Made by a program: the position numbers and the translations under genes. Below, in pieces: positions 41,895 to 64,000 of a stretch of DNA of 64,000 nucleotides; positions within the stretch are counted from its first letter, which is position 1; each line of letters begins with the position of its first letter. Location of the stretch: the sequence record MG383452; one strand, given 5' to 3'. The notes below the pieces were generated by a model. It had not been told where the DNA came from and searched no databases. It worked only from the letters and a program-made list of their open reading frames with translations. Source of the DNA: Escherichia phage FEC14.

Positions 41895-41906
41895 TTGTCA
41901 ACTCCT

Positions 41907-46690: not shown

Positions 46691-46703
46691 TTTCAGTCCT
46701 CGT

Positions 46704-46711
46704 TATAAATA
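46704..46711 (+). promoter_or_regulatory. T4-type late promoter box TATAAATA
   Basis: Exact 'tataaata' about 30 nt upstream of ATG 46740. Confidence 0.45.
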
Positions 46712-46739
46712 CAATTACAATATACCGTGGAGATACATT

Positions 46740-47546
46740 ATGAATTTACCATCATTGCCCAAAACTGAGAGAACACATAAAAGTGATTTCTGGCCGACTG
46801 TGATCAAATACCGCGCCTTTACAGCAGGGCAACAGACCATGTTACTTCAGGTTGCTGATCCGAACACTCCTATGAGTGAGCGCGTGGCAACATTGGAGCA
46901 ACTATTTGACAGTTGTGTTGATGCTGGCGTTCCCTTTAGTAAACTGCCAATCGGTGTTACTGAAGAAGTATTTTTAAAGATGCGCTGTATATCTATCGGC
47001 GAGGTCATGAAGATACGTTACAAATGTAATAACAAAGTTCAAGCCGAAACCAATGAAGGTGGTGAAGAACCAGTTTCTGGCCTTAAAGATTGTGGTCAAG
47101 AGCTTGTGTTACCGATCCCGCTCAATCAAGTAAAATGCGTGTCCCCAGAAGGCTTCAGGGAGACGTTTGATCTACCAGGTGGTTATCATATAAAGATGCG
47201 CCAGCCGTCCTTCTCGGATGCCTCAGTGCTTAATGAAGCATCCTCTGTTGAACAAATGATTGCCACCTTTATCGATTGTCTGTATGACGACGATGGTCAG
47301 GTTTGGAAGGTGGAAAATCCGGCTGAACCTGGTATCGATCCAGAAGTTGCTAAAGAACGCCAACGCATTAAGGATGAATTTGTCAAATGGGTTGGGGACA
47401 ATATTGAATCCGAGATTGTTCAGGACATTTCGAATGATTTCTTTAAAAAGATTCCGCGTATTCGTTACGCGACAAAAATTAAATGCCCTTCGTGTGGGAA
47501 AGAACACGAAGTCAAATTTAACAGTGTCACTGAGATTTTCATTTAA
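46740..47546 (+). CDS. late protein with C-terminal zinc ribbon (possible baseplate assembly protein)
   Basis: 268 aa; C-terminal 'KCPSCGKEHE'; late promoter box upstream; 'GGAGATACATT' before ATG. Confidence 0.5.
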   Translation: MNLPSLPKTERTHKSDFWPTVIKYRAFTAGQQTMLLQVADPNTPMSERVATLEQLFDSCVDAGVPFSKLPIGVTEEVFLKMRCISIGEVMKIRYKCNNKVQAETNEGGEEPVSGLKDCGQELVLPIPLNQVKCVSPEGFRETFDLPGGYHIKMRQPSFSDASVLNEASSVEQMIATFIDCLYDDDGQVWKVENPAEPGIDPEVAKERQRIKDEFVKWVGDNIESEIVQDISNDFFKKIPRIRYATKIKCPSCGKEHEVKFNSVTEIFI

Positions 47547-49678: not shown

Positions 49679-49742
49679 TTACGCTGGTGAGGGCAGATAA
49701 TGCCCTCTCGTGCTGGAGAGGCAATATCCAAAGGGGTTTAAC

Positions 49743-50123
49743 ATGAAAGAGTACAAGGACATTGACCTGAAGTTTGGCATGCATCCGGTCACCAAAGATG
49801 TCACTAAGAAAACAGGCATTTATGCTGTACTACAATCTGTGCGTAATATAGTGATGTCGACGGTAGGTGATTGGCCGACGTATCCGAGTATTGGGGCGGG
49901 GTTGTATACCATGCTGGGAGAAAACACAAATCCCACGATACAGGTCGACGTGAAGAACAAAGTTGAAGATGCCATTGCTCTTTTTGAGCCAAGAGCTGAA
50001 TTGCAATCTGTTGATGTATCATTGTCGGACGATTATCATTCTCTGGGCGTAACCATCACGTTCTATGTGGTCAACAACCCAGAGCCGATAACAGACACCA
50101 TATGGTTGAAACGGACAAATTGA
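49743..50123 (+). CDS. baseplate wedge protein (gp25 / GPW family)
   Basis: 'aagggg' SD; pattern 'LFEPRAELQSVDV...VTITFYVVNNPE' parallels T4 gp25 'NYEPRIDKLAVNV...IVEIRFSVIDNPD'. Confidence 0.7.
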   Translation: MKEYKDIDLKFGMHPVTKDVTKKTGIYAVLQSVRNIVMSTVGDWPTYPSIGAGLYTMLGENTNPTIQVDVKNKVEDAIALFEPRAELQSVDVSLSDDYHSLGVTITFYVVNNPEPITDTIWLKRTN

Positions 50124-50462
50124 TTAAAGAACGTCCGTGGCAGAGCATTTTGTCACCAACTCAAAATGAGTTAATAAACGATATAATATTTTCCCACCCG
50201 TTCTGTGGACTATGGTGGTTGGTTTCAGATTAACCACCATACCGTCCAGATTACCTGTCAACACAAATGTCAGACGGATGCGTAAGACGTTGGTGCCTTC
50301 AGAACGCATTATTTGGCAGTCATGGCTATATCCTATTTGCTTTCCCTTTAGAACCAGAGGGATACGGACATTTTCCTTTAACAGAATATCCAAATTTTCA
50401 AATAATGGACCTTCCTTTTTGTGAACAGAGTACACTGTTTCTAATATCGGGAATTTGTACAT
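50124..50462 (-). CDS. hypothetical protein (weak gene model)
   Basis: 112-aa ORF whose stop abuts the gp25-like stop and whose start sits 1 nt from the upstream ORF stop in another frame. Confidence 0.3.
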   Translation of the reverse strand: MYKFPILETVYSVHKKEGPLFENLDILLKENVRIPLVLKGKQIGYSHDCQIMRSEGTNVLRIRLTFVLTGNLDGMVVNLKPTTIVHRTGGKILYRLLTHFELVTKCSATDVL

Positions 50463-50463
50463 A

Positions 50464-50925
50464 TCACGGCACCAAAGTAATGACGATCATATTGAGTACT
50501 GTATCAACCGCGACACCAGAATCTTCTTCATGGATAGTTGATGCACGTAAATGAATGTCAGAAATATAATTGTCTATATGCATCGACGTCAAATAAGGAC
50601 GGTGTTGATACACAGGACGGTTGACCTGAACATATTCACGCAGAATGCTGAATGAAAAGTCTTCACATTGAGTGGTGTCAATGCGCAAAAATCTTTGAGC
50701 ATGGCAGGTCTTTAACTCGGTCACTTTCCCCAAATAATGGAGGTCTCCGGATGAACCGATGCGGAACATCACGTCTACTTCAGATTTGAAAATTTCGCGT
50801 TCAATAAGGGTCGCTGGTGCCCAACAAACTTCTTCCTTGTCTTCAGCAAACAACGTGTCTATCACTTCTGGTAATTGGATATAACCAAAGTTGTGGCGGG
50901 GGTTGGTGAGTAATTTGTTGGACAT
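50464..50925 (-). CDS. hypothetical protein
   Basis: 153-aa ORF. Confidence 0.45.
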   Translation of the reverse strand: MSNKLLTNPRHNFGYIQLPEVIDTLFAEDKEEVCWAPATLIEREIFKSEVDVMFRIGSSGDLHYLGKVTELKTCHAQRFLRIDTTQCEDFSFSILREYVQVNRPVYQHRPYLTSMHIDNYISDIHLRASTIHEEDSGVAVDTVLNMIVITLVP

Positions 50926-50926
50926 G

Positions 50927-51160
50927 TTATGCTCCTATTACGTGCTGTTTGGCTTGTTCATAGGCTGTGCGGAGTTCAAGATAAGAATCTGCCAACAACG
51001 GTGATTTGTCGTTTTTCCGATTCATGATTATTTGGTGGTTAACGACAGCACGGCGTAATCTGAGTTCTGCCACCCAGAATGCTTTTTGTTTTGCGTGTCC
51101 TGGACGGGCGCGTAGGTCGTGATAATGCATAGAAGCATGATATATTTCAGAGTTGGTCAT
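50927..51160 (-). CDS. hypothetical small protein
   Basis: ATG preceded by 'AGCAGGAACTATATC'. Confidence 0.45.
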   Translation of the reverse strand: MTNSEIYHASMHYHDLRARPGHAKQKAFWVAELRLRRAVVNHQIIMNRKNDKSPLLADSYLELRTAYEQAKQHVIGA

Positions 51161-51237
51161 GATATAGTTCCTGCTATTCAATTTGTGGCGTTTGCCAATA
51201 AATTACTGGGAAGTATAGGCGGAAAGGTTTCAAAAGT

Positions 51238-51260
51238 AAAGCCCCTCATTGAGGGGCTTT
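51238..51260. terminator. rho-independent terminator
   Basis: 'aaagcccctcattgaggggcttt', 7 nt downstream of the glutaredoxin gene stop. Confidence 0.6.
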
Positions 51261-51266
51261 GAAAGA

Positions 51267-51491
51267 TCAGCGTTTCAAACTTGCGGCGAGTCCAGTAACG
51301 TCGGTCACGGTTTGATCAGCCAGGACAATCACGGGCATAGACATGCGCTGTTTACCAGTGATTTTCTGTAATTCTTCCAGCTTGTAATCTTTGTCTAGCT
51401 TCAGAATTTGGTGTTCAATACCGCGAATGCGACAGATGTTTTCAGCTTGTAAACATTGCGCACAACCTTGTTTGGAATAAATCGTAATCAT
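51267..51491 (-). CDS. glutaredoxin/thioredoxin-like protein (NrdC/NrdH-type)
   Basis: 74 aa, 'CAQC' redox motif near the N-terminus; adjacent to nrdB. Confidence 0.65.
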   Translation of the reverse strand: MITIYSKQGCAQCLQAENICRIRGIEHQILKLDKDYKLEELQKITGKQRMSMPVIVLADQTVTDVTGLAASLKR

Positions 51492-51500
51492 TTCTCACCT

Positions 51501-52604
51501 TTAGGCAAATTTCAGACCGTCGGAGACTGATCCAGTAAGGACACCAGTCAGATAATCAGGGGCTTCCGCTTCCTGTAATGCATATTGCATTGTTTTATTA
51601 TCTAGCCACTCATTTATCCATGGCACCGGATTGTCTTTACGGGCTTGTCCTGGATATGGGTGGCCAATGGCTCCCATACGGTGTGTTGCCAACCAGTCCA
51701 CCATTTGATGAAGGATATTTGCATTCAGTCCCAGCATTGAGCCGTCTTTGAACAGATAATTCGCCCATTCTTTTTCTTGGTTGACAACGTCGACATACAT
51801 CTGGGTCATTTCGCCGCGCAGTTCTTCTCTAATAATGGCAAAATCAGGGTCCATCAGTGGCAGACGGTTCAGGAAAGTCTGGGTCAGGATGAGGTGATCT
51901 TGCTCATCACGAGCAATCTGACGGATGATTTTAGCGTTGCCTTCCATTTTGTTGAGGAATTGCATGAAAGCCCAAGAACACGCGAATGAAACATAGAAAC
52001 GAACGCCTTCGAGGGAGTTAGCAGCAAACAGAGCACGCCAGAATGCACGCTTGGCGTTCATGATGTCTTCACGGGTGAACGCGCGTCCAGCCATACGCAT
52101 CCCGCTGTAACGCACCATGTCGTCGTAGTATACGCTGATCTGTCCGGCGCAATCGACGATCTCCTGAACGTCCAGAACATGGTCAAAAACGATACCAGGA
52201 TCATTCACTGTGTTACGAAGGATATGCGTGTAAGATAGTGAGTGGATGGCTTCTTGGCGCGTCCACTCCAGAATAGCAAATTGCGCTTCTGGTGTTGATG
52301 CCCATGGGCCAAACGCTTCGAACGGAGCAGCACCCTGGATAGAATCCAGCATGGTCTGTCGTTTCAGGTTGCTGAAGTAGATGTGTTGTTCCGCAGCGGA
52401 TAGAGTGGCAAAGTCTGCTTTGTCTTTGGTGACATCCACTTCTTCCGGACGCCAGAATTGGCTGAGGCCTTTTTCATACCATTTTTGAACAAAAGGCCAA
52501 GCCACTTTGTCATAACGCTGGATACTTACAGGGTCGCCAAAGAATGGCAGTCCTGTATTATTTGAAGATGGATCGAATACTGAGAATTGCTTTTGTTCGT
52601 TCAT
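51501..52604 (-). CDS. nrdB: ribonucleotide reductase small (beta) subunit
   Basis: 367 aa; di-iron/tyrosyl-radical family features (e.g. 'EAIHSLSY', 'FAANSLEGVRFYVSFACSWAF'); directly downstream of nrdA. Confidence 0.85.
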   Translation of the reverse strand: MNEQKQFSVFDPSSNNTGLPFFGDPVSIQRYDKVAWPFVQKWYEKGLSQFWRPEEVDVTKDKADFATLSAAEQHIYFSNLKRQTMLDSIQGAAPFEAFGPWASTPEAQFAILEWTRQEAIHSLSYTHILRNTVNDPGIVFDHVLDVQEIVDCAGQISVYYDDMVRYSGMRMAGRAFTREDIMNAKRAFWRALFAANSLEGVRFYVSFACSWAFMQFLNKMEGNAKIIRQIARDEQDHLILTQTFLNRLPLMDPDFAIIREELRGEMTQMYVDVVNQEKEWANYLFKDGSMLGLNANILHQMVDWLATHRMGAIGHPYPGQARKDNPVPWINEWLDNKTMQYALQEAEAPDYLTGVLTGSVSDGLKFA

Positions 52605-52623
52605 GTTTCTTTCCTGATGAATA

Positions 52624-52643
52624 AGGGGTGACGAATCACCCCT
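52624..52643 (-). other. intercistronic hairpin between nrdA and nrdB
   Basis: 'aggggtgacgaatcacccct' lying between the nrdA stop and the nrdB SD. Confidence 0.5.
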
Positions 52644-52674
52644 GATATTAAACGTTTGTGTTGTATAGACCTAA

Positions 52675-54951
52675 TCAAACAACACAGGTATCACAAATTT
52701 CTTCAACTTGTTTCAACTCTTCATCTTCCTTGGAGTCTTTGTTGGTGTTGTAATACAGAGTTTTACCACCCCACATGTAGAAAGACAGAATATCCTGCAT
52801 CATAAGAGAGCGCGGGATCTTGCCTTCTGGATATTTCTCTGGGTCATACCATGTGTTGGTGCTGATAGATTGATCTACCCAACGTTGTATGACCGCAGCC
52901 GTCTTCAGGTATTCAATACAATCCAGATTCCATTTCAGGTCATATAGAGGACCAAGGGTTTCTACATCCGGAACGATCTGTTTATAGACGCCGTCCTTGC
53001 TGCCTTTGATGCTGATGAGACCTTTTGGTGGCTCTATACCGTTCGTTGCGTTCAGCACCTGAGAGGAGCTTTCAGTTGGTGCTACGGCTAACAACGTGGC
53101 GTTACGGATCCCATACTCGGATAGGTTCTGCTTAAGACCTTCCCAGTCAAGACCATAGGCTTGCCCAACAGGCTTTTTGCCATTGGGTAGGATGTCCAGC
53201 GGGAGAGGCTGAAGGTCGGCTGTTACAAATCCGGAATCATGGATAGTTGATTTCTTACAAGATCCGAAACGCATGGCCAGACGGTTGGACGCTTTGACCA
53301 AGTAGAAATGAAGATGCGCCATCCACTTGTCTAGAAGTTCTAATCCGATAGGCGATCCATAACCCGTGAAATTCTTGGCCAGGAAATGTGCGACGTTGAC
53401 GATACCGATACCCAGAGGACGATATTCTTCTACGGCCAAACGGGCTTGGCGAGCTGGGTAGTCCTGATATTCCAACAACATATCCAAAGCTGAAACCAGA
53501 ACGAAAGCAACATCTTCCATTTCTGTTGGATCTTCAAATGCCGTCAGGTTAAATGATGCGAGTGTACACAGGGCAATGCGACCATCTTCATCATCATACT
53601 GTTGGAACTCACGAGTCGGGAGCGCGATTTCTAAACACAGATTAGAGCTATAAATCGTGTCCAAATTGAACGGACTATACTCGTTCATGTGATCAACGAA
53701 TGCGATGTAGATCCGTCCAGTGTCAGAACGCTGGTCTAGTAGCATTTGGAACACTTCTTCAGCTTGCAGCTTTTTGGAACGACATAACCCGGCGTCGGCG
53801 GCCTTGATCATATTGTCGTACATTTCGCGGAATTTATTGACGTCTGCGAAAAATGCTTCATACATTTCGCGGTTGTCTTTTGGATCAAACAGGTATAGAG
53901 GCTGTTTGTTCACCAGGCGCTCGAACATGACGCGGTTAATCTGAATCCCATAGTCGATACGGCGTTCACGGTTCTCTTCCAATCCACGGTTGTTTTTGAG
54001 AACAACGACATCATCAAATTGATAATGCCAGATGGGAACATAGCATGTTGCCGATCCACCACGGATACCGCCTTGAGAGCAAGACTTCAGGGCACCAGTC
54101 AAATACTTGATGAATGGAACCAGACCTGTATGGACCATTTCCCCTTTACGGATAGGGCTACCGATGCCACGAATTGCTCCAACATCGAATCCGATGCCAG
54201 CACGTTTGGAAACATAATCCACGATGCTTTTCGCAGTGGCATTAATTGAGTCCAATGTATCACCAGTTTTGATCAATACACAAGAGCTGAACTGTCGGGT
54301 CGGGGTGCGGACGCCGGACATAATAGGTGTTGGAAGACTGAATTTGCCTGTACTGGCGTATTCATAGAACTTCTTCACCATTGTCAGTCTGCTTTCTTTA
54401 TCCCACGCTGAGAATAATGCCATAGCGATTGCCATGTACATGACTTGAGGGGTTTCATAATACACTTTGCTGTCAGAAGAACGATCACGCAAAAGATATT
54501 TTTGAGTCAGCTGGCCCATTGCTGCCCAAGTGAAATTCTTGTCGCGTTTGTGGTTGATGACTGTGTTAAGTTCTTCGAATTCTTCTTTAGAGTAAAGTTC
54601 GAGGAATTCGCGGTCATAAACACCCAGCTTGGTGTTCTTTGCAAAGATATCCAGCAAATGAGGTGGCTTGTACTGACCATAGACAACCTTGCGCAGGTCA
54701 TACGACTTCAGGCGGGCAGCAACATATTGATAATTGGGTTTATCAACAGAAATTAAGGTGGCCGCAGCTTGGATAATGATATCCTGAATGCGTTCGGTTT
54801 TCATGTTATCGGTGAATTGAATCTTCGATGCAGCTTCCACCTCAGACACTGATACTCCTTCAAGGCCGTCACATGCTCGTTCAATAACGGTATGGAGTTT
54901 TTCAATGTCAAAGGGGACAGAAGATCCGTCCCGCTTTATGATGTTAATCAT
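52675..54951 (-). CDS. nrdA: ribonucleotide reductase large (alpha) subunit, class I
   Basis: ATG with 'GAGGA' SD gives 'MINIIKRDGSSVPFD' (ATP-cone N-terminus); about 758 aa. Confidence 0.85.
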   Translation of the reverse strand: MINIIKRDGSSVPFDIEKLHTVIERACDGLEGVSVSEVEAASKIQFTDNMKTERIQDIIIQAAATLISVDKPNYQYVAARLKSYDLRKVVYGQYKPPHLLDIFAKNTKLGVYDREFLELYSKEEFEELNTVINHKRDKNFTWAAMGQLTQKYLLRDRSSDSKVYYETPQVMYMAIAMALFSAWDKESRLTMVKKFYEYASTGKFSLPTPIMSGVRTPTRQFSSCVLIKTGDTLDSINATAKSIVDYVSKRAGIGFDVGAIRGIGSPIRKGEMVHTGLVPFIKYLTGALKSCSQGGIRGGSATCYVPIWHYQFDDVVVLKNNRGLEENRERRIDYGIQINRVMFERLVNKQPLYLFDPKDNREMYEAFFADVNKFREMYDNMIKAADAGLCRSKKLQAEEVFQMLLDQRSDTGRIYIAFVDHMNEYSPFNLDTIYSSNLCLEIALPTREFQQYDDEDGRIALCTLASFNLTAFEDPTEMEDVAFVLVSALDMLLEYQDYPARQARLAVEEYRPLGIGIVNVAHFLAKNFTGYGSPIGLELLDKWMAHLHFYLVKASNRLAMRFGSCKKSTIHDSGFVTADLQPLPLDILPNGKKPVGQAYGLDWEGLKQNLSEYGIRNATLLAVAPTESSSQVLNATNGIEPPKGLISIKGSKDGVYKQIVPDVETLGPLYDLKWNLDCIEYLKTAAVIQRWVDQSISTNTWYDPEKYPEGKIPRSLMMQDILSFYMWGGKTLYYNTNKDSKEDEELKQVEEICDTCVV

Positions 54952-54990
54952 AGCGATCCTCGGTTTGTGTTTATGCAGGCTGTTATTATA

Positions 54991-55017
54991 CACCGCCTCC
55001 ATGGATTGAAGGCGGTG
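54991..55017 (-). terminator. hairpin (possible terminator) between phoH and nrdA
   Basis: 'caccgcctccatggattgaaggcggtg'; on the minus strand it is followed by 'TATAAT'. Confidence 0.4.
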
Positions 55018-55035
55018 GGGAAGTTCGTGTGGTAT

Positions 55036-55875
55036 TTAAATGTTGTACAGGTCGTTAATTTCTAACATTAGGCGGGTGAAGTTGCCGCGACCATTACGAT
55101 CAGACTTATCGAATTCGATGATGCTGAATGGTTGAACCCACTCTGGATATTCATCTCCGATTTCTACGCCGTCAATTTGCAAGGAACCTGTTTCCAGCTT
55201 GTTGTTGAAGTCTTTAAAGGAATCCACATACGTCTGTAACGCACTATCACGCAGTCTCTTGTTAGACTGTTTGATATCTCCATTCACGAAGATGTACGAA
55301 GAATCTGAAGCACGGGTCAGTAAGTTCTTCAGCTGCTCCATATCGCATTCCTGCGCCTCTTCGATAATCAGGAAACAATCATCGAAAGTCATCCCTTTTA
55401 CAGTTTCAAGGTCTTGAATTTCTATGATGCGTTTCTCCCACAGATAGTTGAAGAAACCGTCGGAACCCGTATCTGTTTTGAGAACCTTTTTAAATGTCTG
55501 TATGAGCGGCATCAAATAAGGCATCAGCTTTTCATATGTGTCACCAGGCCGGAACCCTGCTGTGGTGCCAGTTGGAAGGGGAGAACGTGTGATGATGATC
55601 TTGTTGATTGTTTTGTCTATCAGATGTTTTGCTGCAGCAGATGCACCACAATAGGATTTGCCTGTACCTGCCGGACCGATAGCGATAGTGAGGTGTTCGT
55701 TTAATGCGGATTGATATGCGAGGTTCTGATTTTCTGAGAGGCCATTGAACGGAGCAATTTTGAAATCACCTTTAGAAAATTTCATCCAGTCTTCTTCCTT
55801 CTGGATGGTGTCTTTCTTACGAGCAGATTTTGTCTTCGCTGGCTTCATGGATACAACTTTAGACGCAGATTGCAT
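55036..55875 (-). CDS. phoH: PhoH-family ATPase
   Basis: Walker A 'GPAGTGKSY'; 'aggaagg' SD before ATG 55875. Confidence 0.75.
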   Translation of the reverse strand: MQSASKVVSMKPAKTKSARKKDTIQKEEDWMKFSKGDFKIAPFNGLSENQNLAYQSALNEHLTIAIGPAGTGKSYCGASAAAKHLIDKTINKIIITRSPLPTGTTAGFRPGDTYEKLMPYLMPLIQTFKKVLKTDTGSDGFFNYLWEKRIIEIQDLETVKGMTFDDCFLIIEEAQECDMEQLKNLLTRASDSSYIFVNGDIKQSNKRLRDSALQTYVDSFKDFNNKLETGSLQIDGVEIGDEYPEWVQPFSIIEFDKSDRNGRGNFTRLMLEINDLYNI

Positions 55876-55954
55876 GTTGAACCTTCCTATATCTACAGGG
55901 GTTGTCGACACCTTTAATTAAGCGACACGCCCAGCATACCTGTATATCAGATAA

Positions 55955-55978
55955 AGAAAAAGGCCGTTTCCGGCCTTG
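55955..55978 (-). terminator. rho-independent terminator
   Basis: Minus strand 'aggccggaaacggcct' followed by 'ttttctttat', just past the endolysin stop. Confidence 0.6.
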
Positions 55979-55982
55979 AGGA

Positions 55983-56777
55983 TTAGCAGAAACTCTTGTA
56001 TGCTGCCGCCAGTTTAGTATCATACTGGTTTTTCGCATATGCCGGACCATTGTACCGACGAGCAAACTCGGCCCAATTCTTGTTCTTCAGGGCTTTCCAC
56101 ATATTGGCATCAGCCTTGATGAACTTGACAAATGCCAGAAGATGAGCGCGTTCACCAGTCAGGAAATCAGTGAACATCTCTTTGGCATTTGAATAGCCAC
56201 AGATTTGGCAGTTGAACCCCATGATCTGGAATAGGCCGTAGGAAGCACTCTCGTAAGCGCAGTCCTCGTCAAGGGCGATTGCACCCTGAAGGCGTTCCAA
56301 CTCCGCGTCTCCGCCGATATACCCGCCAGAATTGGGGTTAACCAATGTTGGGTAGAGTTGGTACAGAGCATTGGCTCTTGCTTGCCCGAATTTGGCCGTC
56401 ACCTTTTTGTACATGATGTGGCGCTCAAACAGAGTTTTGATCTTGCCAGTTTTGGTAAAACCCGTGCCACGGGATTCTACCTGGTTCACCGCTTTCATAC
56501 TGGCCAGCTCAACACCAAGTTCACGTGCTGCGTCAACCAAGTCCGCTTCGGTCAGATGTTCCTGGTGAGCGTCTCCAGCGTTGCGGATAGCATAGAAGGT
56601 CTTTGGCCCAGCAATACCATCAATAACCAATCCAGCACCTGCCTGAACGGATTTGACGGCATTCTCTGTTGCCTTACCAAATATGCCATCGGCTGTAAGA
56701 GAGAAACCGATTTTGTTGAGGCTTTGTTGAAGTGCTTTGACTTCAGAACCTCGGTTGCCAAGTTTTAGAATGGCCAT
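55983..56777 (-). CDS. endolysin: peptidoglycan-binding domain plus N-acetylmuramidase-like catalytic domain
   Basis: N-terminal PG-binding repeat 'LKLGNRGSEVKALQQSLNKIGF...DGIFGKATENAVKSVQ'; C-terminal 'ASYGLFQIMGFN' muramidase-like motif. Confidence 0.65.
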   Translation of the reverse strand: MAILKLGNRGSEVKALQQSLNKIGFSLTADGIFGKATENAVKSVQAGAGLVIDGIAGPKTFYAIRNAGDAHQEHLTEADLVDAARELGVELASMKAVNQVESRGTGFTKTGKIKTLFERHIMYKKVTAKFGQARANALYQLYPTLVNPNSGGYIGGDAELERLQGAIALDEDCAYESASYGLFQIMGFNCQICGYSNAKEMFTDFLTGERAHLLAFVKFIKADANMWKALKNKNWAEFARRYNGPAYAKNQYDTKLAAAYKSFC

Positions 56778-56846
56778 AAGAAAATACCTCCGCAATGTAT
56801 GCGAAGGTATTTAAAGTGAAAGTCGAACTTGAGGATTTAGTGTCGA

Positions 56847-57035
56847 TTATCTGACTACGACGATAGGCATGATTTCTTTGAAGGAAGTCCTAACTTCGGA
56901 ATCATACCCATATTTTTCAAATATTTTCAACATCGCTTGTTCCAGTTCCTCTTGGAACTGAGGAAAGTGCGCGTTGGGAATTCGGTCGGCAACCCATAGA
57001 GCGCCAGGAGAGGCTTGGATAATTGCTCTACTCAT
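56847..57035 (-). CDS. hypothetical small protein
   Basis: 62-aa ORF. Confidence 0.4.
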   Translation of the reverse strand: MSRAIIQASPGALWVADRIPNAHFPQFQEELEQAMLKIFEKYGYDSEVRTSFKEIMPIVVVR

Positions 57036-57065
57036 GTCTCATTCTCCTACCAAAACTTTGAAAGG

Positions 57066-57086
57066 GGGAGGTTTCCCCCTTGCGGT
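57066..57086 (-). terminator. rho-independent terminator
   Basis: 'agggggaggtttccccct' at the 3' end of the 57086..57574 gene. Confidence 0.5.
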
Positions 57087-57574
57087 TAAGCCAGTTTGTT
57101 CACCAGAGTTTCTACTGCGTCGGCGCTCAGTTTACCCATTTTGACATACTGGGATTTCGCTTCACCGCCAGCGGCTTTCACGATATCGCTGTTGTCATAA
57201 CCCTTTTTCGGGAATACCATCACGGAGAAGGTTCCGTTGTTCAGCGGGTTCAGCTGAATGCGACCTTTACCGACTACGATGGTGCCGTAAGTTTCGGTGT
57301 TCGCTTCGACAACGTGGATGTCATGGCCCAGGTCTTTCAGCATGCCAACCTTGTCAGCAGTCTTGGCAACCACGGCTTTGTCTACGACAACCTGCTCTAC
57401 CAGGGTGAAGCCGTTGGTCGCTTTCACTTTGCCGTTCAGCAGATTCATGAAGGAAGTTTTGCCACCAGTGAAGCCAGCTGCCTGAGCGATGCGGAACATT
57501 TCAACTTTTGCAACTTCGGTGTTCAGTTCAAAAGAGATGGTGCCGTTGGTGATCAGAGTTTTGGTAGTAGCCAT
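57086..57574 (-). CDS. hypothetical protein
   Basis: ATG with 'GAGGAATTACATC' upstream; early-type promoter ('CTTTACT', 17 nt, 'TATTAT') about 60 nt upstream. Confidence 0.55.
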   Translation of the reverse strand: MATTKTLITNGTISFELNTEVAKVEMFRIAQAAGFTGGKTSFMNLLNGKVKATNGFTLVEQVVVDKAVVAKTADKVGMLKDLGHDIHVVEANTETYGTIVVGKGRIQLNPLNNGTFSVMVFPKKGYDNSDIVKAAGGEAKSQYVKMGKLSADAVETLVNKLA

Positions 57575-57724
57575 GATGTAATTCCTCATAATGTAGTTGG
57601 GTCGTTTCACTTTTCATTCGGCGGGGTGTTGTGTACCGCCCTATGTGAACTATAATAGTGCATGATTATTGAAGAGTAAAGTCTTTTTCAATAAATTTTT
57701 AAATTATTTTTGAAGTATTTTAAA

Positions 57725-57747
57725 AGGCCTCGTAGAATGAGGCCTAG
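57725..57747 (-). terminator. rho-independent terminator
   Basis: 'aaggcctcgtagaatgaggcct'; on the minus strand followed by 'tttt'. Confidence 0.55.
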
Positions 57748-57773
57748 AGAGAAGGTTTTTGAGTTAAAAAGTT

Positions 57774-57983
57774 TTAGGTCGGCTTCTTTTTCAAATACTG
57801 GCGAGCCAAATTCATTTGTTCTTCAGTGATAGGACAACCGCCGAAGTCCACCATTCCGTTCCTCCAACCATGGATGAAACTCTTAGATTCTAAACCAGAT
57901 AGGACATATCCTTCACGGGCTTGCATATACCCGCGAAGAATCTCTTCATCGTCCATACTATTCAGTTCTTTCAAATCCATCAT
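57774..57983 (-). CDS. hypothetical small protein
   Basis: 69-aa ORF overlapping the primase stop by 4 nt. Confidence 0.45.
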   Translation of the reverse strand: MMDLKELNSMDDEEILRGYMQAREGYVLSGLESKSFIHGWRNGMVDFGGCPITEEQMNLARQYLKKKPT

Positions 57984-59044
57984 ATCTTCCTCAAGTCAGA
58001 AAATCGTAAGGACGCCGACAGTCCCTGATATACGTTCTTGGCTATGATCTGAAGCAGATCCCGTATCGGGATATTTCCCTTGTCGGGGCGAACCATATCA
58101 TTGATATCCTTCCACGGTATTTCCGGTGGAAACAGAACGACTTTGACTCCGCTGTCTATCATCTTCTGTATACCGTCACAAACTTGTTTGTTCCTGTATT
58201 GGTTATCGGGGATATAGATGTCTCCCTTAGCACTTAATAAGTCGGCATCGGCAGTCGCAAGACAATTAGGTAGAAACAAGCTATCAATTGGACCTTCTAC
58301 TACCAACTTTGTTTTGTTCCAAATGATGCGCTCTTCCCCGTAGATTTTAGTGTCTTCGTTCTTAGGCTTGACAGTGGCATACCGTAATACCCCATCAGGA
58401 AGGTTATCGCCGAATGCGCGCCCCTGAACTATCTTCATGCGCCCGTCTTGGGTCCAGAATGGGATTACCAGCCGCTCATCTTCGGGTATCTTCTTTTGCT
58501 TCTCAACATCCGTTTCGAAACTCAGAAGATCTTGACGAAAATTCCTGCTGTAATACAACAAAGATAACGTGCTCTCCGGCATTCCCCTGCCTTCAACGTA
58601 ACGACGGGCGATATGATCACGGTCAAGAAGATCAAGGCGTATCATATTCCCAAGGTGCTCTTCATCTCGTTTGGCGACCTGAGAACCGATACGCGCTGTC
58701 TGGGTCAGGCGCTGTAGTGGTTTGAGTTTTTGTAACGGGCGGGAACTGGTATCCCCCATGATCCTGAATTTTTCAAGGTTGTATTCATTATACAGACGCT
58801 CGTCAAACTTCTTCAACCAGAATTCAAACGCCCAACCGCTCATTTCATTACAGTTGTGGCACTTGAAACGAAACACATCGTCATCACGATCATAAAAGAA
58901 GTGACCACGACGCTTGTTGGCACTCTTCTTAGAATCCCCGCATAATGGGCAACGAAATTTGGCGACAGCGCCAACACGTTCCCAGCTGAATTTATCAAGT
59001 CGGGGGGCGAGAAAATTGATGTATTGTTCGTCCAAGAATTTCAT
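57980..59044 (-). CDS. DNA primase (gp61-like)
   Basis: Zinc ribbon 'FRCPLCGDSKKS...CHNC'; 'KIYGEERI', 'EGPIDSLFLP' and 'WKDINDM' parallel T4 gp61. Confidence 0.85.
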   Translation of the reverse strand: MKFLDEQYINFLAPRLDKFSWERVGAVAKFRCPLCGDSKKSANKRRGHFFYDRDDDVFRFKCHNCNEMSGWAFEFWLKKFDERLYNEYNLEKFRIMGDTSSRPLQKLKPLQRLTQTARIGSQVAKRDEEHLGNMIRLDLLDRDHIARRYVEGRGMPESTLSLLYYSRNFRQDLLSFETDVEKQKKIPEDERLVIPFWTQDGRMKIVQGRAFGDNLPDGVLRYATVKPKNEDTKIYGEERIIWNKTKLVVEGPIDSLFLPNCLATADADLLSAKGDIYIPDNQYRNKQVCDGIQKMIDSGVKVVLFPPEIPWKDINDMVRPDKGNIPIRDLLQIIAKNVYQGLSASLRFSDLRKI

Positions 59045-59661
59045 TAGATATTTGGCCTCTGGAACACTTCTGTCACATTATAATCCACCCCGCGACTTTG
59101 AGCTATGCAAAGCTGTCGCCAAGCCCCATACAGAATATTTTGTTCCGCAACCTGATTGCGTTCAAAGTGGGCGAATTCTTCCAGCATCTGTTTGTACCCT
59201 AATAGATAATGAGGGATATCTGTAGGACTTCTTTTGCCCAAAGATTTAGACAAATATGATGCATAATGTTCCGGTGAAGACAAAGAGGAATATTGCATAT
59301 TTGGAACGTGAACGGGCTTCAAAGATTTTCTAGGGGTGAAGTACAACAAACCCCATTTGGGAGGGAGGTCTTCAATTTTAATAACATCTGCTGGGCAAAC
59401 ATAGAAACGATATGCTCCCATGCCTATGGAAGGATTCATGCGATGAGGTTTCTTTTTGTCTGTCAGGAAGTCGGCGCGGGAGACTTTAACTTCCATTAAT
59501 ATAGAACAACCCCCAGGTCTGAACCCGATGGCGTCAGGGGATTCACGATTATCGAATGAATTTGGTTCTACGAACACAGCACCACAATTCATTTGTTTGT
59601 GTAGAAATTTTGCAGCGATTTGACAACCTTCTGAGTGAGAAGGTATAAAGATTTTGCCCAT
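59044..59661 (-). CDS. PD-(D/E)xK nuclease-like protein (putative)
   Basis: 'PDAIGFRPGG...LMEVKVS' resembles the D...ExK catalytic core. Confidence 0.35.
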   Translation of the reverse strand: MGKIFIPSHSEGCQIAAKFLHKQMNCGAVFVEPNSFDNRESPDAIGFRPGGCSILMEVKVSRADFLTDKKKPHRMNPSIGMGAYRFYVCPADVIKIEDLPPKWGLLYFTPRKSLKPVHVPNMQYSSLSSPEHYASYLSKSLGKRSPTDIPHYLLGYKQMLEEFAHFERNQVAEQNILYGAWRQLCIAQSRGVDYNVTEVFQRPNI

Positions 59662-59724
59662 TGTTATCTGTATCCTATTGATGACGAATGGGCAAAATTA
59701 TAACCTGACGATGATCCTATTGAG

Positions 59725-60078
59725 TTAGGACAATTGCTTCAGTTTGTAAATCGTTTGATAGCACAAAGTTTTGATTTCGTCAAGCGTGTTTTGTAAATGG
59801 CTATCACACTGATTGTAGATCCCATTAACGTCGATGACCACGCTGTTGATATACGATATCGGTTCAGGATTGTATAATTTGATGTTCTCGAATCCTGGAA
59901 TGTATATACCACCCGCACCAATATACGCTTCCGTAAAGGTGTCTAGCAAGTCCTCCAGTTCCCCGTAGAACTCCCCGAGTGCCTTGTGCTTGGCGTAGGA
60001 CGTTGTAACGAAGTGCAGGGCATGAGAGTGGGCTATAGCAAGCAGTCCACGGTTGATGAAAATACTCGCGTTAACCAT
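59725..60078 (-). CDS. hypothetical protein
   Basis: 117-aa ORF. Confidence 0.45.
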   Translation of the reverse strand: MVNASIFINRGLLAIAHSHALHFVTTSYAKHKALGEFYGELEDLLDTFTEAYIGAGGIYIPGFENIKLYNPEPISYINSVVIDVNGIYNQCDSHLQNTLDEIKTLCYQTIYKLKQLS

Positions 60079-60167
60079 GATTTGTTTCCTGTATTGTGAA
60101 CCATCTAGTATTTAGTGTTAATGGGTTCATGAGGTACTATATAGAATAATATAACTGGAGAAAGAAA

Positions 60168-60773
60168 ATGAAAACTTTTCAAGACTTTTTGACCGAAGCC
60201 GCGCCGCCGATGTCTGTTCATATCAAGGCAGACAAGATCGGCAAATCCACCGAAGACAATATCGGTACTTTCTTGCGAGTTAGTGTTAGTGGCGACAAAG
60301 CCACCTTTGAAACCCCTGATGGTCGTAAGATAATCCTGACGGGTGCCAGAGACATCATTTCCGCATCTGGTCTGAAAGATGGACAGTTTGCCAGTGCCCA
60401 GATGATTGACAAGGTTGATACTGACACCGCTGTCAAGTACAACAAATCAGGCAAATATATTGACTTGTTGGATGTCAAATCAGGTATGGGCAATTCCTTT
60501 ATCTCCATTGACGGCAACAAGCAATGGAAAGAAATGACTGAAGGTGGTTGGTATGCGTATAAAGGCGGTCGCCCCGGCTTGGCTCGTTATAAGATCGCCA
60601 TGGTTATGGGACCTCATGCGGGTATGCCATCTCCTGGGGAAGATATTGAATACGAGTTACCGAATGGCGGCAAAGAACGCGGAACCGTCATGAAACTGAA
60701 TGGTGCATCCAAGCTGATGGACGTCAAAAACGAAAAAGGTAAGAAAGTACAAGTCAGTATGTATGTGAAATAA
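60168..60773 (+). CDS. protein with capsid-targeting-sequence-like N-terminus (candidate internal head protein)
   Basis: N-terminus 'MKTFQDFLTEA' closely resembles the T4 CTS 'MKTYQEFIAEA'; 201 aa. Confidence 0.55.
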   Translation: MKTFQDFLTEAAPPMSVHIKADKIGKSTEDNIGTFLRVSVSGDKATFETPDGRKIILTGARDIISASGLKDGQFASAQMIDKVDTDTAVKYNKSGKYIDLLDVKSGMGNSFISIDGNKQWKEMTEGGWYAYKGGRPGLARYKIAMVMGPHAGMPSPGEDIEYELPNGGKERGTVMKLNGASKLMDVKNEKGKKVQVSMYVK

Positions 60774-60775
60774 CA

Positions 60776-60798
60776 AAACCCCGCGAAAGCGGGGTTTC
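60776..60798. terminator. bidirectional rho-independent terminator
   Basis: 'aaaaccccgcgaaagcggggttt' followed by 'cttttat', between convergent genes. Confidence 0.6.
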
Positions 60799-60800
60799 TT

Positions 60801-61040
60801 TTATGGCTTGACCAGAGTCATCTTGACGGTTTCACCCGTGTCGGTGTCTGTCAGGGTCATGACGTCTTGTGCGTTCACAGACTTCACTTTCCCCTGCCGC
60901 TTGTCGCCGTTGCGGTTGTAGTAGTCGATCAGTTCGCCTTTGGTTGGGCGGCCAACATCGGTGATGTCATACTGACCGCGCTTCCCCAGCGCCCGATGGT
61001 CTGTTGCTTCCTTCAGCAGGAAGTCCTGGAACCCTTTCAT
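60801..61040 (-). CDS. small protein with capsid-targeting-sequence-like N-terminus
   Basis: N-terminus 'MKGFQDFLLKEA'; 79 aa. Confidence 0.5.
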   Translation of the reverse strand: MKGFQDFLLKEATDHRALGKRGQYDITDVGRPTKGELIDYYNRNGDKRQGKVKSVNAQDVMTLTDTDTGETVKMTLVKP

Positions 61041-61048
61041 ACATCCCC

Positions 61049-61618
61049 CTAGACAGGCTTAACGCCGAGGAACTTGGCGATATCAGCAGCCAGGTTTTTA
61101 CCCTTGCTGATGTCCTGCTCTTTGCCGTTGCAGGTGACGATCACATATGGGTCGTCTTCGCCGCCGAAGTTCACGGTGATCGCCTTGCCGATGCCTGGGA
61201 TACCAGAGTATTCGAACTCAGTGCGACCACTTTTGCGGGACTTGCCAACACCCAGTGCTTTACCGATCATCTTGTCCATGTTCGCCAGTTCCTGAGCATA
61301 GGCTTCGGTCACCTGGCCTTTGTCAGCAGACTTGCCAAAGAAGAATTCGAAACCGTCATGGACAGCAACGACTTCCTGACCTTGGGAGATACCGTGAGTC
61401 TGGTCTGGGGTTAGTTTGACTTTTGCTGTGTTACCGTCAGTGAGTTCCAGGTTGTAGACATCCGCCTGATTGTCAGGGGTGATCTGGGTGATGACAGCTC
61501 CAGAGCACCACAATGTTCCATCAGCTTGGCTTTTGATGGATATACTCTTGCCCTGGATGCCAGCATGGGTCTGAGGCTGAGCGGCTTGTTCTTTGAAATA
61601 TTGAAGGAACGGTTTCAT
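61049..61618 (-). CDS. protein with CTS-like N-terminus (candidate internal head protein)
   Basis: N-terminus 'MKPFLQYFKEQA'; 189 aa. Confidence 0.45.
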   Translation of the reverse strand: MKPFLQYFKEQAAQPQTHAGIQGKSISIKSQADGTLWCSGAVITQITPDNQADVYNLELTDGNTAKVKLTPDQTHGISQGQEVVAVHDGFEFFFGKSADKGQVTEAYAQELANMDKMIGKALGVGKSRKSGRTEFEYSGIPGIGKAITVNFGGEDDPYVIVTCNGKEQDISKGKNLAADIAKFLGVKPV

Positions 61619-61649
61619 CTTAATCTCCTCGGGGATTTCAGTTATTTAT

Positions 61650-61667
61650 AAGCCCCCGAAGGGGCTT
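61650..61667 (-). terminator. rho-independent terminator
   Basis: 'aagcccccgaaggggctt', 8 nt past the stop of the 638-aa gene. Confidence 0.55.
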
Positions 61668-61674
61668 TCGATGA

Positions 61675-63591
61675 TCAGATCTTAATCTGCATATTGCCGC
61701 CCAGGGACTGCTCGTACTCGCTGTACGCGCTTTCCCCGTTGCTTGCAGCCCATTCGTCAGACTGCTGAGCGCGAGACAGAGTCATCAGGTTTGGTTCAGT
61801 CGGGTTGTATCCCTTGGACTTAGCATCCTGGTACAGAGTCTGCAGGTACTGGTTAGCGCGATCGATTTGAGCCTTGAACTCGCGATATGCACCTTCGGTT
61901 GTGTTACGACGGAAGGTGATATCCCAGTCCACGTTCAGAGTCTGACCATCACGGCTTGCATAGATCTGCCAATCCAGGTCGCGACCTTTTGGAGCGTTGT
62001 CGCGGATGGAGCCTGCATATGTTGCCAGGTCTACACCAGTCTTTTTAGCGGTCGCTAAAACCAAGGGTGCCAAGCGATCAATAGCGGTTTGCACTATTGC
62101 GGTCAGTTTGGACGGTTTGGTGATGTCGATGTCTCGGATGACGATAGGCTGGCCGATGGTCTTCCCATTCGGTCCATATTCGGTAATTGCTTTGACAGTC
62201 AGCACAATAGGATCACTTCCTTTGGTGATACCACGGTTGATCGTCGCTGTTACAGCCCCTTTCGCGCCAAAAGAGACACTACCGGAGGCCATCGTAGAAG
62301 AAGACACACCACGAAGTTCATTTACTTTGTAGAATGCGTTCACCAGAGCACGCCAGCGGTCTGTTGTGAGTTCGGCTGCCGTGGTTTGAGCAGGAGCCAC
62401 AGCCCCAACGCCAAATTCAACATAAGCCACAATCTTGCCACCCGACTTCAGTTCCCAACCCATACCCTGACGGTCAGAAGCCGCCATGAGTTTACGATCC
62501 ACTTCCCCACGACCAACATATTCTTTGTTGAATACGGTCACCTGAGCGATAGATTGGGAGCGGGCAATCTTCGCCATTGCGCCATCTTTGACCATGATGG
62601 CCAGATCATTGGAACTCAGAGTCACGTCGTTGGCACCGACTACCTTCACAACAGAACTGAAGATGCCGTTGGATTTCGCCATGACGGAAATGTTCCAGTC
62701 AGGGTTGGCATCACTGGTCGGGAAGTTAATTTCACGCCAGTCTTTGACGCGTTGGTTGAAATTATTGAGCAGATCCGAAGGAGGAACAGGAACACCAAAT
62801 TCACGACAAATATCTTCTACGGTCGGTTCTACCACCTGCTTTCTACCGTTCTGACCAACGAGGACATCGGCCTCACTCAGGCTTGGGGTAATGTCCAAGT
62901 CAAATGTGCCACGCTGATAATAGTTGATGCGAGGAGGCTGACCGATCTTACCACGCCATGACCAGGTTGCGGGATTGTTGGTAGTAGCGCCAACATTAGT
63001 GTCTTGAGTATCGTTCTGAACCGGAACGTCGCCGACCTTGTCTGGATCATCCCATGTGACACCTTTCATTTTCGGACCATCGAATACCTGAGCAGGATCC
63101 TTACCTTTACGCACAACCCATACGAATGCACGATCAGGGATAGGGGTATACGTCAGGTCCATGACATTGAGCTTCTGCTTCAGGCCGGACTGACGGATGA
63201 TCTTCGGCAGGAGGGTAACACCACGTTCCAATGCTTTCTTGGAGAAGTTAATTGCAAAGCCGTCAATGGTTTTCCCCAAAGGCGTCGCCATGAATTGCTT
63301 TGTTGCTTCGATCATGGATGCGATGACACGCATTGGGTTTTTGAAACGACCGATTGCGTCTGGATAGGTCGAACCACGTTTCTGGCCTATGAAGACCTGA
63401 CGAACGTTCTTGCCCAGCCCCTGCGGGGTATAAAATTGGATGCGGAATTCTTTTTCGTCTTCATCAACAAATGTGAAGAAAATGTCACCAGCGTTCTTCT
63501 TACCGAATGTCAATTCATACGGGGATGAGTTAAACGCTTCGTCTAATTGTTTAGACTCTTCAAGAAAGTTCAAGAAAGATGGGATGGCCAT
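61675..63591 (-). CDS. large protein with CTS-like N-terminus (candidate packaged protein, Alt-like size)
   Basis: 638 aa; N-terminus 'MAIPSFLNFLEES' has the hydrophobic-x-Glu pattern of gp21-cleaved CTS. No catalytic motif identified. Confidence 0.45.
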   Translation of the reverse strand: MAIPSFLNFLEESKQLDEAFNSSPYELTFGKKNAGDIFFTFVDEDEKEFRIQFYTPQGLGKNVRQVFIGQKRGSTYPDAIGRFKNPMRVIASMIEATKQFMATPLGKTIDGFAINFSKKALERGVTLLPKIIRQSGLKQKLNVMDLTYTPIPDRAFVWVVRKGKDPAQVFDGPKMKGVTWDDPDKVGDVPVQNDTQDTNVGATTNNPATWSWRGKIGQPPRINYYQRGTFDLDITPSLSEADVLVGQNGRKQVVEPTVEDICREFGVPVPPSDLLNNFNQRVKDWREINFPTSDANPDWNISVMAKSNGIFSSVVKVVGANDVTLSSNDLAIMVKDGAMAKIARSQSIAQVTVFNKEYVGRGEVDRKLMAASDRQGMGWELKSGGKIVAYVEFGVGAVAPAQTTAAELTTDRWRALVNAFYKVNELRGVSSSTMASGSVSFGAKGAVTATINRGITKGSDPIVLTVKAITEYGPNGKTIGQPIVIRDIDITKPSKLTAIVQTAIDRLAPLVLATAKKTGVDLATYAGSIRDNAPKGRDLDWQIYASRDGQTLNVDWDITFRRNTTEGAYREFKAQIDRANQYLQTLYQDAKSKGYNPTEPNLMTLSRAQQSDEWAASNGESAYSEYEQSLGGNMQIKI

Positions 63592-63669
63592 TGTAATTCT
63601 CCTGATTATAAAATCGGTGCGGTTTCCCTTAATTAGCGAAAAGAAAGGGATGCTAACACCCCTTTATTC

Positions 63670-63945
63670 TTAACGACGGAACGGGCGAGACGCGTTTTGG
63701 CGATTGTTGTAATTCTTATCAAATTGTGCCAACGCCGCCGGACTCCATTCGCGTTCCCATTCTTTGTCAACTTCGGTTTGGTTGGCAGGTTCAATCATTT
63801 CAGCAGTAGGAAAATCGCGTTTCATAATTTCACGCAATTGTTCAGAAGGGGCGGTTTGGGCGTGGACTAATTCTTCACCGTCGTAAACTTTGGCCATCAA
63901 CCATTTGCTGCCGTAACGGATATATGCGTCGAGGATGATTTTCAT
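63670..63945 (-). CDS. hypothetical small protein
   Basis: ATG preceded by 'AGCAGGAACTACATT'. Confidence 0.45.
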   Translation of the reverse strand: MKIILDAYIRYGSKWLMAKVYDGEELVHAQTAPSEQLREIMKRDFPTAEMIEPANQTEVDKEWEREWSPAALAQFDKNYNNRQNASRPFRR

Positions 63946-64000
63946 AATGTAGTTCCTGCTTTTCAAGTTGGTGTCGTACTGCTTATGTTTAGAATTATAC

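Follow-up and report, generated by a model that had tools for sequence, protein, structure and literature searches.

Introduction

PeSLs (promoter-early stem-loops) are mobile cassettes of the T4-like phages RB49/phi1, T4/PST, and KVP40/nt-1 (PMC2839356, Arbiol et al. 2010; PMC4122927, Comeau et al. 2014). Each is composed of an AT-rich region, a stem-loop, a sigma-70-like promoter (TTTACW-N17-TAYWAT in T4/PST), and, at its 3' extremity, a Shine-Dalgarno (SD) sequence with a start codon; degraded half elements exist, and PeSLs are located near insertions and deletions of ORFan genes (PMC4122927). In RB49, crossovers were mapped between the -10 hexamer and ATG, and promoter activity, terminator activity, and mini-circles were shown experimentally (PMC2839356). 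Here, we describe a sequence that recurs directly upstream of start codons in a 64,000-nt stretch of Escherichia phage FEC14 (MG383452; this whole stretch is called the window below) and forms the 3' end of a repeated cassette that probably belongs to the same type.

The papers on the phages phiSboM-AG3 (PMC3121705) and LIMEstone1 (PMC3296691) list a few 'early' promoters of the sigma-70-like type and, between genes, 31-40 terminators. These papers treat the signals singly and describe no repeated composite cassette, conserved initiation unit, or cargo swapping, and our literature search found no paper on PeSLs in ViI-like phages. A second system that bears on the locus is the RegA protein, the known sites of which are A+U-rich and poorly conserved (rIIB, AAAAUUAUGUAC; gene 44, AAAUUAUGAUU; SELEX, aaAAUUGUUAUGUAA; RB69, UAA repeats; PMC3014915).

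Architecture of the Repeated Cassette

By megablast, window positions 50000-64000 matched approximately 100 Kuttervirus genomes (Ackermannviridae; ViI, CBA120, and Det7 group) at 95-97% identity; the window is a segment of a Kuttervirus genome. The best-annotated match, Salmonella phage BSP101 (NC_049382; 157-kb genome, 219 annotated genes, ~96% identical to the window), served as the reference. The window corresponds to the reverse orientation of BSP101 from 119647 through the record origin to 25094, and rIIA occupies window positions 1-2742. Further comparison genomes included Dickeya phage LIMEstone1 (NC_019925), Salmonella phage SKML-39, and 0507-KN2-1.

The preliminary description of this DNA had pointed to near-identical sequences upstream of the ATGs at 63945 and 51160. 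Both strings are present on the minus strand and agree at 24 of 28 positions including ATG, or 21 of 25 without it. A shared translational operator or RNA-binding site had been suggested; rather than an isolated operator, the similarity proved to be the closing 3' portion of a terminator-promoter-leader cassette of ~100-125 nt that is repeated. In its full form, the cassette runs 5' to 3' from an AT-rich tract, often followed by a GC hairpin with a T-run, through TTTACT-N17-TATAMT and a variable leader of 25-45 nt to a unit abutting ATG. Eleven copies, drawn from the four genera Kuttervirus, Limestonevirus, Agtrevirus, and Taipeivirus, were aligned and gave as consensus a AAATTATTCAATAAA-like tract, an optional hairpin, TTTACTT(c/t)TT(c/g)AAtAa, ~6 nt, cTATAMTTC, a variable leader, and yTGAA-N3-mAGGAACTAyATy-ATG. 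The last element (~21 nt before ATG) is hereafter called the initiation unit, and its 3' end adjoins ATG in every copy.

Four cassettes lie in the window: A, which spans 63943-64000 and is truncated there by the end of the window; B, at 51158-51260; G, at 57572-57720; and E, at 31880-31991. A hidden Markov model (HMM) of the full cassette found B at 51286-51158 (E 1.1e-25), G at 57713-57587 (E 2.4e-15), and A at 63999-63943 (E 1.5e-11, truncated by the window end) in the window, and five full copies plus a site with the unit only (site D) in BSP101. Cassette E scored weakly with this model (E 4.2, a fragment) and was therefore assigned by inspection of shared blocks. A mismatch search of BSP101 revealed further copies in the same start-codon register at gp179 (site C), gp061 (site F), and the endonuclease V gene gp150 (site D), where the unit stands behind a late-type TATAAATT promoter and a hairpin. 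An exact scan of the 2.9 million contigs of IMG/VR with a 23-nt form of the unit (TGAANNGMAGGAACTAYATYATG) detected 43 sites on contigs of 152-162 kb, the size range of Ackermannviridae genomes, and two short fragments. The number of copies per genome is four in the window, five full and at least three unit-only in BSP101, and at most five exact units in the IMG/VR genomes.

The pattern TTTACN-N16-18-TAYNMT matched in the window only cassettes E, B, and G and one position inside a coding region, and ACTAYATYATG was found downstream of all four intergenic TTTACT-type promoters of the window, the truncated A included. The promoter takes the form TTTACT-N17 followed by TATAAT, TATACT, TATTAT, or TATCAT. 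An AT-rich region precedes the -35 hexamer in G (57720-57681) and, with AAATTATTCAATAAA-like sequence, in A, C, and F as read in BSP101, and is weak in B. A stem-loop lies by the promoter in B (51260-51238), in E (31991-31968), and in A as read from BSP101, and in C the stem brackets the -35 hexamer and the promoter spacer. Sites A and B have in common a GC hairpin plus T-run, TTTACT, a spacing of 17 nt, TATAAT or TATACT, and a leader of 48-51 nt up to ATG.

All four window cassettes lie on the minus strand. The end of the window falls within the -10 hexamer of cassette A, and the upstream part of this copy was therefore read from BSP101, where the -35 hexamer TTTACT and the terminator hairpin beyond the window end are seen. 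Within the window, segment 63967-64000 holds the -10 hexamer TATAAT (63999-63994) and the leader CATAAGCAGTACGACACCAAC (63987-63967); the 58 nt of cassette A inside the window are identical in BSP101. The initiation unit of A, TTGAAAAGCAGGAACTACATT (63946-63966), stands in register directly before ATG (63945-63943; unit HMM E 1.9e-7). Behind it lies an open reading frame (ORF) of 91 amino acids (MKIILDAY..., 63670-63945, minus strand), which was assigned to PHROG 5704, a family of unknown function, and had no Pfam match.

Cassette B carries a terminator-like GC hairpin with a T-run, AAAGCCCCTCAATGAGGGGCTTT (51238-51260), overlapping the -35 hexamer. Its promoter (51212-51240) consists of TTTACT (51240-51235), a 17-nt spacer, and TATACT (51217-51212), and its initiation unit, TTGAATAGCAGGAACTATATC (51161-51181; unit HMM E 8.9e-8), precedes ATG (51160-51158) of a 77-amino-acid ORF (MTNSEIYH..., 50927-51160, minus strand) present in Kuttervirus only. 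The proteins encoded downstream of A and B are dissimilar by eye, and paralogy of the two genes was rejected as the source of the upstream identity, which is not part of a gene duplication. A reading of the unit as a second promoter (TTGAAA-N17-GAAAAT, 63966-63938) was likewise discarded as a chance match; site B has no equivalent spacing.

In cassette G, the AT-rich region is followed by TTTACT (57680-57675), TATTAT (57657-57652), and a leader hairpin (57641-57620). The tandem units reported upstream of the gene at 57086 are indeed present: unit 1, without SD sequence (57610-57590), is followed by ATG1 (57587-57589), and unit 2, AGGAATTACATC (57586-57575), by ATG2 (57572-57574). The two start codons are in frame and 15 nt apart, and the second is the annotated start in BSP101. 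Cassette E is degenerate. Its -10 hexamer is TATCAT (31931-31926), and a unit without SD sequence, TTGAAAAGTTTCACTACATC (31915-31896), leads to an out-of-frame ATG1 (31895-31893), after which the gene's own SD sequence and ATG2 follow as AGAGGCAAAAATG (31892-31880). A 14-codon out-of-frame ORF beginning at 31895 overlaps the start of the 397-amino-acid gene. The 16-nt -35 block of this cassette, CTTTACTTCAATAAAA, is exactly duplicated in tandem (31940-31971, minus strand), which looks like recombinational slippage. On the plus strand, a half cassette consisting of a promoter-less, diverged unit (TTTGATTTGAGACCCTATATC-ATG, 7394-7417) with CTAYATY exactly in register precedes the gene at 7415, the orthologue of which is BSP101 gp028.

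Two candidate occurrences outside Ackermannviridae were rejected. The match in 'Salmonella phage selz' belongs to a deletion mutant of an Ackermannviridae phage, and the match in Av-05 covers just 24 nt of the terminator.

Register of the Initiation Unit Relative to Start Codons

Among the 25-nt segments upstream of the 92 genes called in the window, the pair 63945/51160 was the sole outlier; the next pairs shared 17 of 25 positions. In 500 column permutations, a null that keeps the position-specific composition of SD sequence and spacer and leaves the shared descent of cassette copies unmodelled, the largest pair identity averaged 15.8 and never exceeded 19, against 21 observed. The 20-mer TTGAAWAGCAGGAACTAYAT had exactly two window sites at up to three mismatches, against 0.02 expected.

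The preliminary description had proposed that the conserved sequence extends beyond the SD sequence, and had named a frequency no higher than that given by SD sequence and base composition as the finding that would speak against it. An excess was found at a fixed register to ATG. The 7-nt spacer word CTAYATY occurred in exact register in three window genes against 0.08 expected (none of 2000 permutations reached three) and at -7 to -1 in 11 of the 219 BSP101 genes against 0.42 expected (permutation maximum of four in 2000 runs). When one mismatch was allowed, 19 BSP101 genes had the word against 5.6 expected, and AGGAACTAYATY at up to two mismatches occurred 12 times in that genome against 1.3 expected. 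Since the null ignores the common descent of copies, these excesses indicate non-independence of positions and not necessarily independent selection. Searched by itself at two mismatches, anywhere in the window, the 11-mer core AGCAGGAACTA was not enriched (17 against 11.8 expected). A signal exists only where the sequence is in register with start codons. The seven best matches of a unit-only HMM in BSP101 all ended exactly at annotated start codons.

Shorter versions had also been listed before four other genes. All four are present, and three share part of CTAYATY. The sequence before the gene at 46740 (GGAGATACATTATG, 46727-46742) and that before the gene at 57086 (AGGAATTACATCATG, 57572-57586) have one mismatch each to the spacer word. 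The initiation region of rIIB (GAGAACTACAAGATG/GTGAGAACTACAAG-ATG, 2761-2777, plus strand) has two; it is a weak relative of the unit and, taken alone, is indistinguishable from chance. The fourth version did not hold up as a relative: GGAGAACAATAATG, before the gene at 45703-46188, has five mismatches and is an SD sequence only.

The general initiation profile of the 219 BSP101 genes is G-rich from -12 to -8 and favors T at positions -6 and -2 and A at positions -5 and -3 (0.55 for the latter). The unit agrees with this profile and therefore represents the consensus initiation region of the genome.

Conservation and RNA Folding

The unit is an island of conservation on a par with the promoter hexamers. 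Mean pairwise identity among the 11 copies was 1.00 for the -35 hexamer, 0.53 for the promoter spacer, 0.86 for the -10 hexamer, 0.41 for the leader, and 0.80 for the 21-nt unit. Kuttervirus and LIMEstone1 have genomes that are ~59% similar overall (PMC3296691), yet their copies of cassette A share 86% identity.

No secondary structure was shared among the four leaders that were folded (A, B, G, and E). Relative to shuffled sequences, A (z +1.27) and E folded less well, B showed a modest z of -2.07, and G was unremarkable but for its leader hairpin. A search of the whole window against Rfam 15 gave no match at or above the gathering score. As the leaders have neither a shared fold nor an Rfam match, the conservation is of primary sequence, and a reading of the riboswitch or thermometer type was dropped for want of shared leader structure.

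Exchange of Genes Behind the Cassette

The space behind cassette A, termed slot A, spans the interval from the gp128 homologue to a conserved large protein (window 61675-63591). Behind the same cassette, the window carries the 91-amino-acid MKIIL gene and LIMEstone1 and SKML-39 a 111-amino-acid MTQLK gene, and the two products are dissimilar (blastp E 9.2). At least five alternative contents were found among the genomes, with MKIIL, MTKTEL, MNAIK, MTQLK, MKIIL plus MTQLK, or MTQLK plus MEKLT. In the genome L044, the half cassette of the second gene, consisting of the unit only, directly follows the stop codon of the first gene; a deletion between two such units would yield the slot A arrangements of other genomes. 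Cassette A of LIMEstone1 is itself a mosaic, both ends resembling BSP101 copy C and the middle resembling copy A.

The 77-amino-acid gene of slot B had no homologue in SKML-39 or 0507-KN2-1 by tblastn. In both phages, the gene immediately behind cassette B and its unit is the homologue of the window gene that comes next (50464-50925). At site D, endonuclease V lies downstream in BSP101 and an unrelated ORF in SKML-39, and both flanking genes are conserved. The 42 complete ORFs downstream of the IMG/VR units fell into 13 families with no detectable similarity between families. At sites A, B, and D, related phages thus differ by inserted, deleted, or replaced ORFs, an association that is descriptive.

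No Pfam matches were obtained for the cassette-driven genes, and their PHROG families are of unknown function. As the cargo genes are functionally unassigned, cargo function says nothing about the timing of expression.

Two further observations concern the slots. In SKML-39 (L007 33402-34354), a homing endonuclease gene lies inside cassette B between duplicated TTTACTTT(T)G; the terminator and TTTACTTTG flank it on one side, and a second TTTACTTTTG and the rest of the cassette on the other. The gene by slot A (61675-63591, minus strand) encodes 638 amino acids in the window and 890 in BSP101, with 99% identity over 400 of the 638 residues by tblastn. In other genomes, this neighbor ranges from 163 to 800 amino acids with a conserved N-terminus (...QLDEAFNSAPYELT), and it is a mosaic or variable protein.

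A Probable PeSL-Like Cassette with Exchangeable Cargo

The recurrent sequence before ATG is a real, statistically solid feature. It is best explained as the form that an already known type of phage regulatory cassette takes in this family. With a probability of approximately 0.75, we interpret it as a PeSL-like terminator-promoter-leader cassette in which the 3' unit is the consensus unstructured ribosome-binding region and the repeated copies are recombination handles that swap ORFan cargo at ATG. The hairpin is predicted to terminate transcripts from upstream, and host RNA polymerase would initiate ~7 nt past the -10 hexamer, putatively early in infection. The leader, which is short and has little if any structure common to the copies, would then expose a moderate AGGA SD sequence 8 nt from AUG, followed by a G-poor spacer with A at -3, a context expected to favor initiation. 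At the DNA level, the repeated cassette or unit may act as a homology handle, recombination between copies inserting, deleting, or replacing an ORF that starts at ATG. If ORFs are exchanged in this manner, the cassette would be an expression socket that stays fixed, with small ORFan genes as its exchangeable cargo.

The resemblance to PeSLs extends over several properties. The parts follow the same order, and the T4/PST promoter TTTACW-N17-TAYWAT matches TTTACT-N17-TATAAT of the present cassette. Several similar copies occur per genome together with degraded half copies, they adjoin ORFan genes that differ between related phages, and the apparent crossover zone extends from the -10 hexamer to ATG. 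The two sets of elements also differ. The phages examined here belong to Ackermannviridae, not Straboviridae, and no sequence homology to T4-type PeSLs was detected, the cassette matching essentially only Ackermannviridae by blastn. Furthermore, the last ~21 nt, including the spacer between SD sequence and ATG, are conserved here as strongly as the promoter hexamers, and the unit also circulates alone, after stop codons and behind a late-type promoter. Finally, the activities and mini-circles of RB49 are experimental, whereas promoter and terminator activity of the Ackermannviridae cassettes is predicted from sequence.

In the LIMEstone1 record NC_019925, a terminator and a 'putative middle promoter' are annotated in the intergenic region of cassette A at coordinates offset from the visible hexamers and hairpin; these features served solely to show that a terminator and a promoter had been recognized in the region by its annotators.

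The leader of T7 gene 10 is a single-copy element proposed to contain an rRNA-complementary enhancer. It resembles the present unit in combining a conserved unstructured leader, an SD sequence, and a defined spacer, in its association with efficient initiation, which is predicted for the present unit, and in being portable between genes. The unit described here differs in being multi-copy, with gene swapping as its hallmark. Inspection by eye, without computation, revealed no rRNA complementarity of the unit beyond AGGA.

Several points weigh against the PeSL-like interpretation. The literature search on the ViI-like phage family found no transcription, translation, or recombination data, including early promoters or transcriptomes of Ackermannviridae. 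The -10 hexamers of B (TATACT) and E (TATCAT) are both one base away from the T4/PST consensus as published, cassette E has the weak HMM score given above, and cassettes G and F lack the stem-loop by the promoter. In addition, ~8 BSP101 genes carry the spacer word without a nearby TTTACT promoter; such genes fit half cassettes and fit a cassette-independent function of the unit equally well. Recombination alone also leaves the invariance of the spacer across genera unexplained, and selection at the RNA level, by ribosome or factor binding, is needed in addition.

Alternative Explanations

The 21-nt unit could in addition be a translational operator through which an RNA-binding protein of the phage, a RegA homologue or another factor, co-regulates mostly small ORFan genes. 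We regard this as unlikely, though the unit sits where the T4 RegA sites sit, either overlapping AUG or adjoining it on the 5' side, in RNA that has no common fold (PMC3014915). Operators of T4 and RB69 RegA are likewise short single-stranded RNA sites between the SD sequence and AUG or over AUG, in a few dozen mRNAs, and the spacer word occurs in a regulon-like number of BSP101 genes (about 11-20 of 219). Moreover, the unit is also found at promoter-less internal genes and behind the late-type promoter of site D, so that it behaves as a promoter-independent module. The preliminary description had suggested a check for RegA-like regulators elsewhere in the genome, and one was found in the close relative, outside the window: BSP101 gp165 is a full-length member of the RegA family (PF01818, E 4e-35) that follows the clamp-loader genes, the same genomic position as in T4, and aligns to 1REG. 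In this alignment, T18, R21, and W81, which are among the RNA-binding residues of T4 RegA (PMC3014915), are conserved. By its 96% identity and synteny with BSP101, the genome of the window probably encodes a RegA homologue as well. Near versions of the spacer word are carried by rIIA and rIIB, the latter being a known RegA target in T4 (PMC3014915).

The sequence of the unit argues indirectly against RegA as its reader. GGAACUAYAUYAUG contains C, matches neither AAUUAUG nor UAA repeats, and is unlike any known RegA site; no resemblance was found to aaAAUUGUUAUGUAA, AAAUUAUG, or the UAA repeats (PMC3014915). Whereas the known sites are A+U-rich and little conserved (AAAAUUAUGUAC, AAUAAUAAUAA), the unit is a well-defined word. 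Orthologues of the classical targets, genes 45, 44, and 62 (clamp and clamp loaders) and regA, lack the unit, only rIIA and rIIB having near versions, and the leader of regA carries the T4-SELEX-like AAUUGUUA instead. Residues K14 and F106 of T4 RegA are not conserved in the BSP101 homologue, and its binding specificity is consequently not predictable. It is quite unlikely that a phage factor, be it a RegA homologue with changed specificity or another protein or RNA, reads the unit as a dedicated operator or enhancer. If one did, every ORF that entered the socket by recombination would automatically come under post-transcriptional control shared with other host-takeover genes. The resulting plug-and-play regulon would change its membership by cassette recombination and not by point mutation. 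As a separate observation, AAUUGUUA in the regA-homologue leader (BSP101 ~93210-93250; L003 43208-43250) is the core of the T4 SELEX consensus aaAAUUGUUAUGUAA, which by analogy hints at T4-like autoregulation.

If enterobacterial hosts select for the best initiation region, convergence toward it, with neither common descent of the copies nor a role in recombination, would account for the unit being equal to the genome-wide consensus initiation region, for the similar initiation regions of the major head and tail sheath genes, and for the low structure of leader A relative to shuffles. It is nevertheless improbable, since the similarity reaches into the promoter, the promoter spacer, and the leader (e.g., CATAAGCAGTACGACAC in copies A and C) and is mosaic between copies. 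The whole spacer word co-occurs in 11 genes against the 0.42 predicted from position-wise preferences, and homology between genomes ends at ATG while the cargo differs.

A chance product of SD sequence and AT-rich spacer composition, as might be suggested by the non-enriched 11-mer core and by the version at 45703-46188 that is merely an SD sequence, is refuted by the permutation tests and by recurrence over four genera and 43 IMG/VR sites, and its probability is negligible.

Significance for Phage Genome Evolution and Annotation

If the PeSL-like interpretation is correct, the cassette shows how ViI-like phages, which find wide use in the biocontrol of Salmonella, E. coli O157, Klebsiella, and Dickeya, exchange small accessory genes via a fixed expression socket, and it would extend PeSLs beyond the T4-like phages to a second, distantly related family of myoviruses. 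For annotation, the cassette fixes start codons, for example by revealing as cassette scars the second of the two ATGs at the 57086 gene and, at 31895, the ATG that is out of frame, and a family-specific model becomes available for the strongest sigma-70-type promoters. The cargo slots are flagged as places in which accessory ORFan genes may be sought. For engineering, the cassette may offer a compact natural part comprising promoter and ribosome site, together with natural insertion sites.

Other Observations in the Window

A second recurrent intergenic design consists of a GC-stemmed hairpin with a -10-like hexamer as its loop (e.g., ggcggTATAATTGccgcc and gctgcTATAATAgcagc). Such hairpins were found at 2734-2749, 12830-12847, 17918-17940, and 49689-49707 on the plus strand and at 38912-38896, 32697-32672, and 29799-29783 on the minus strand, 25-45 nt upstream of the starts of rIIB and of the genes at 12872, 17962, 49743, 38871, 32647, and 29760. 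The design resembles the RB49-type PeSL, in which the stem-loop overlaps the -10 box (PMC2839356).

At 60168-60773 (plus strand), a 201-amino-acid ORF lies opposite in strand to its neighbors, with a bidirectional terminator at 60775-60798. No counterpart was present at this position in BSP101, SKML-39, or 0507-KN2-1, and no Pfam or PHROG match was obtained; the ORF appears to be an ORFan insertion. In BSP101, outside the window, a good unit-like TTGAACAGACGAAGGAACTTCATC-ATG (E 0.05) was found at 41875-41901 (plus strand), opposite in strand to gp065/gp066, and may be either a random match or the start of a small ORF missed in annotation. T4-type late promoter boxes, TATAAATA, are located upstream of baseplate and other late genes at 46690-46742, at 41907-41914 (plus strand), and at 61650-61643 (minus strand). 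The divergent genes at 46690 (minus strand) and 46740 (plus strand) share one AT-rich region, TTATAAATACAATTACAATATA.

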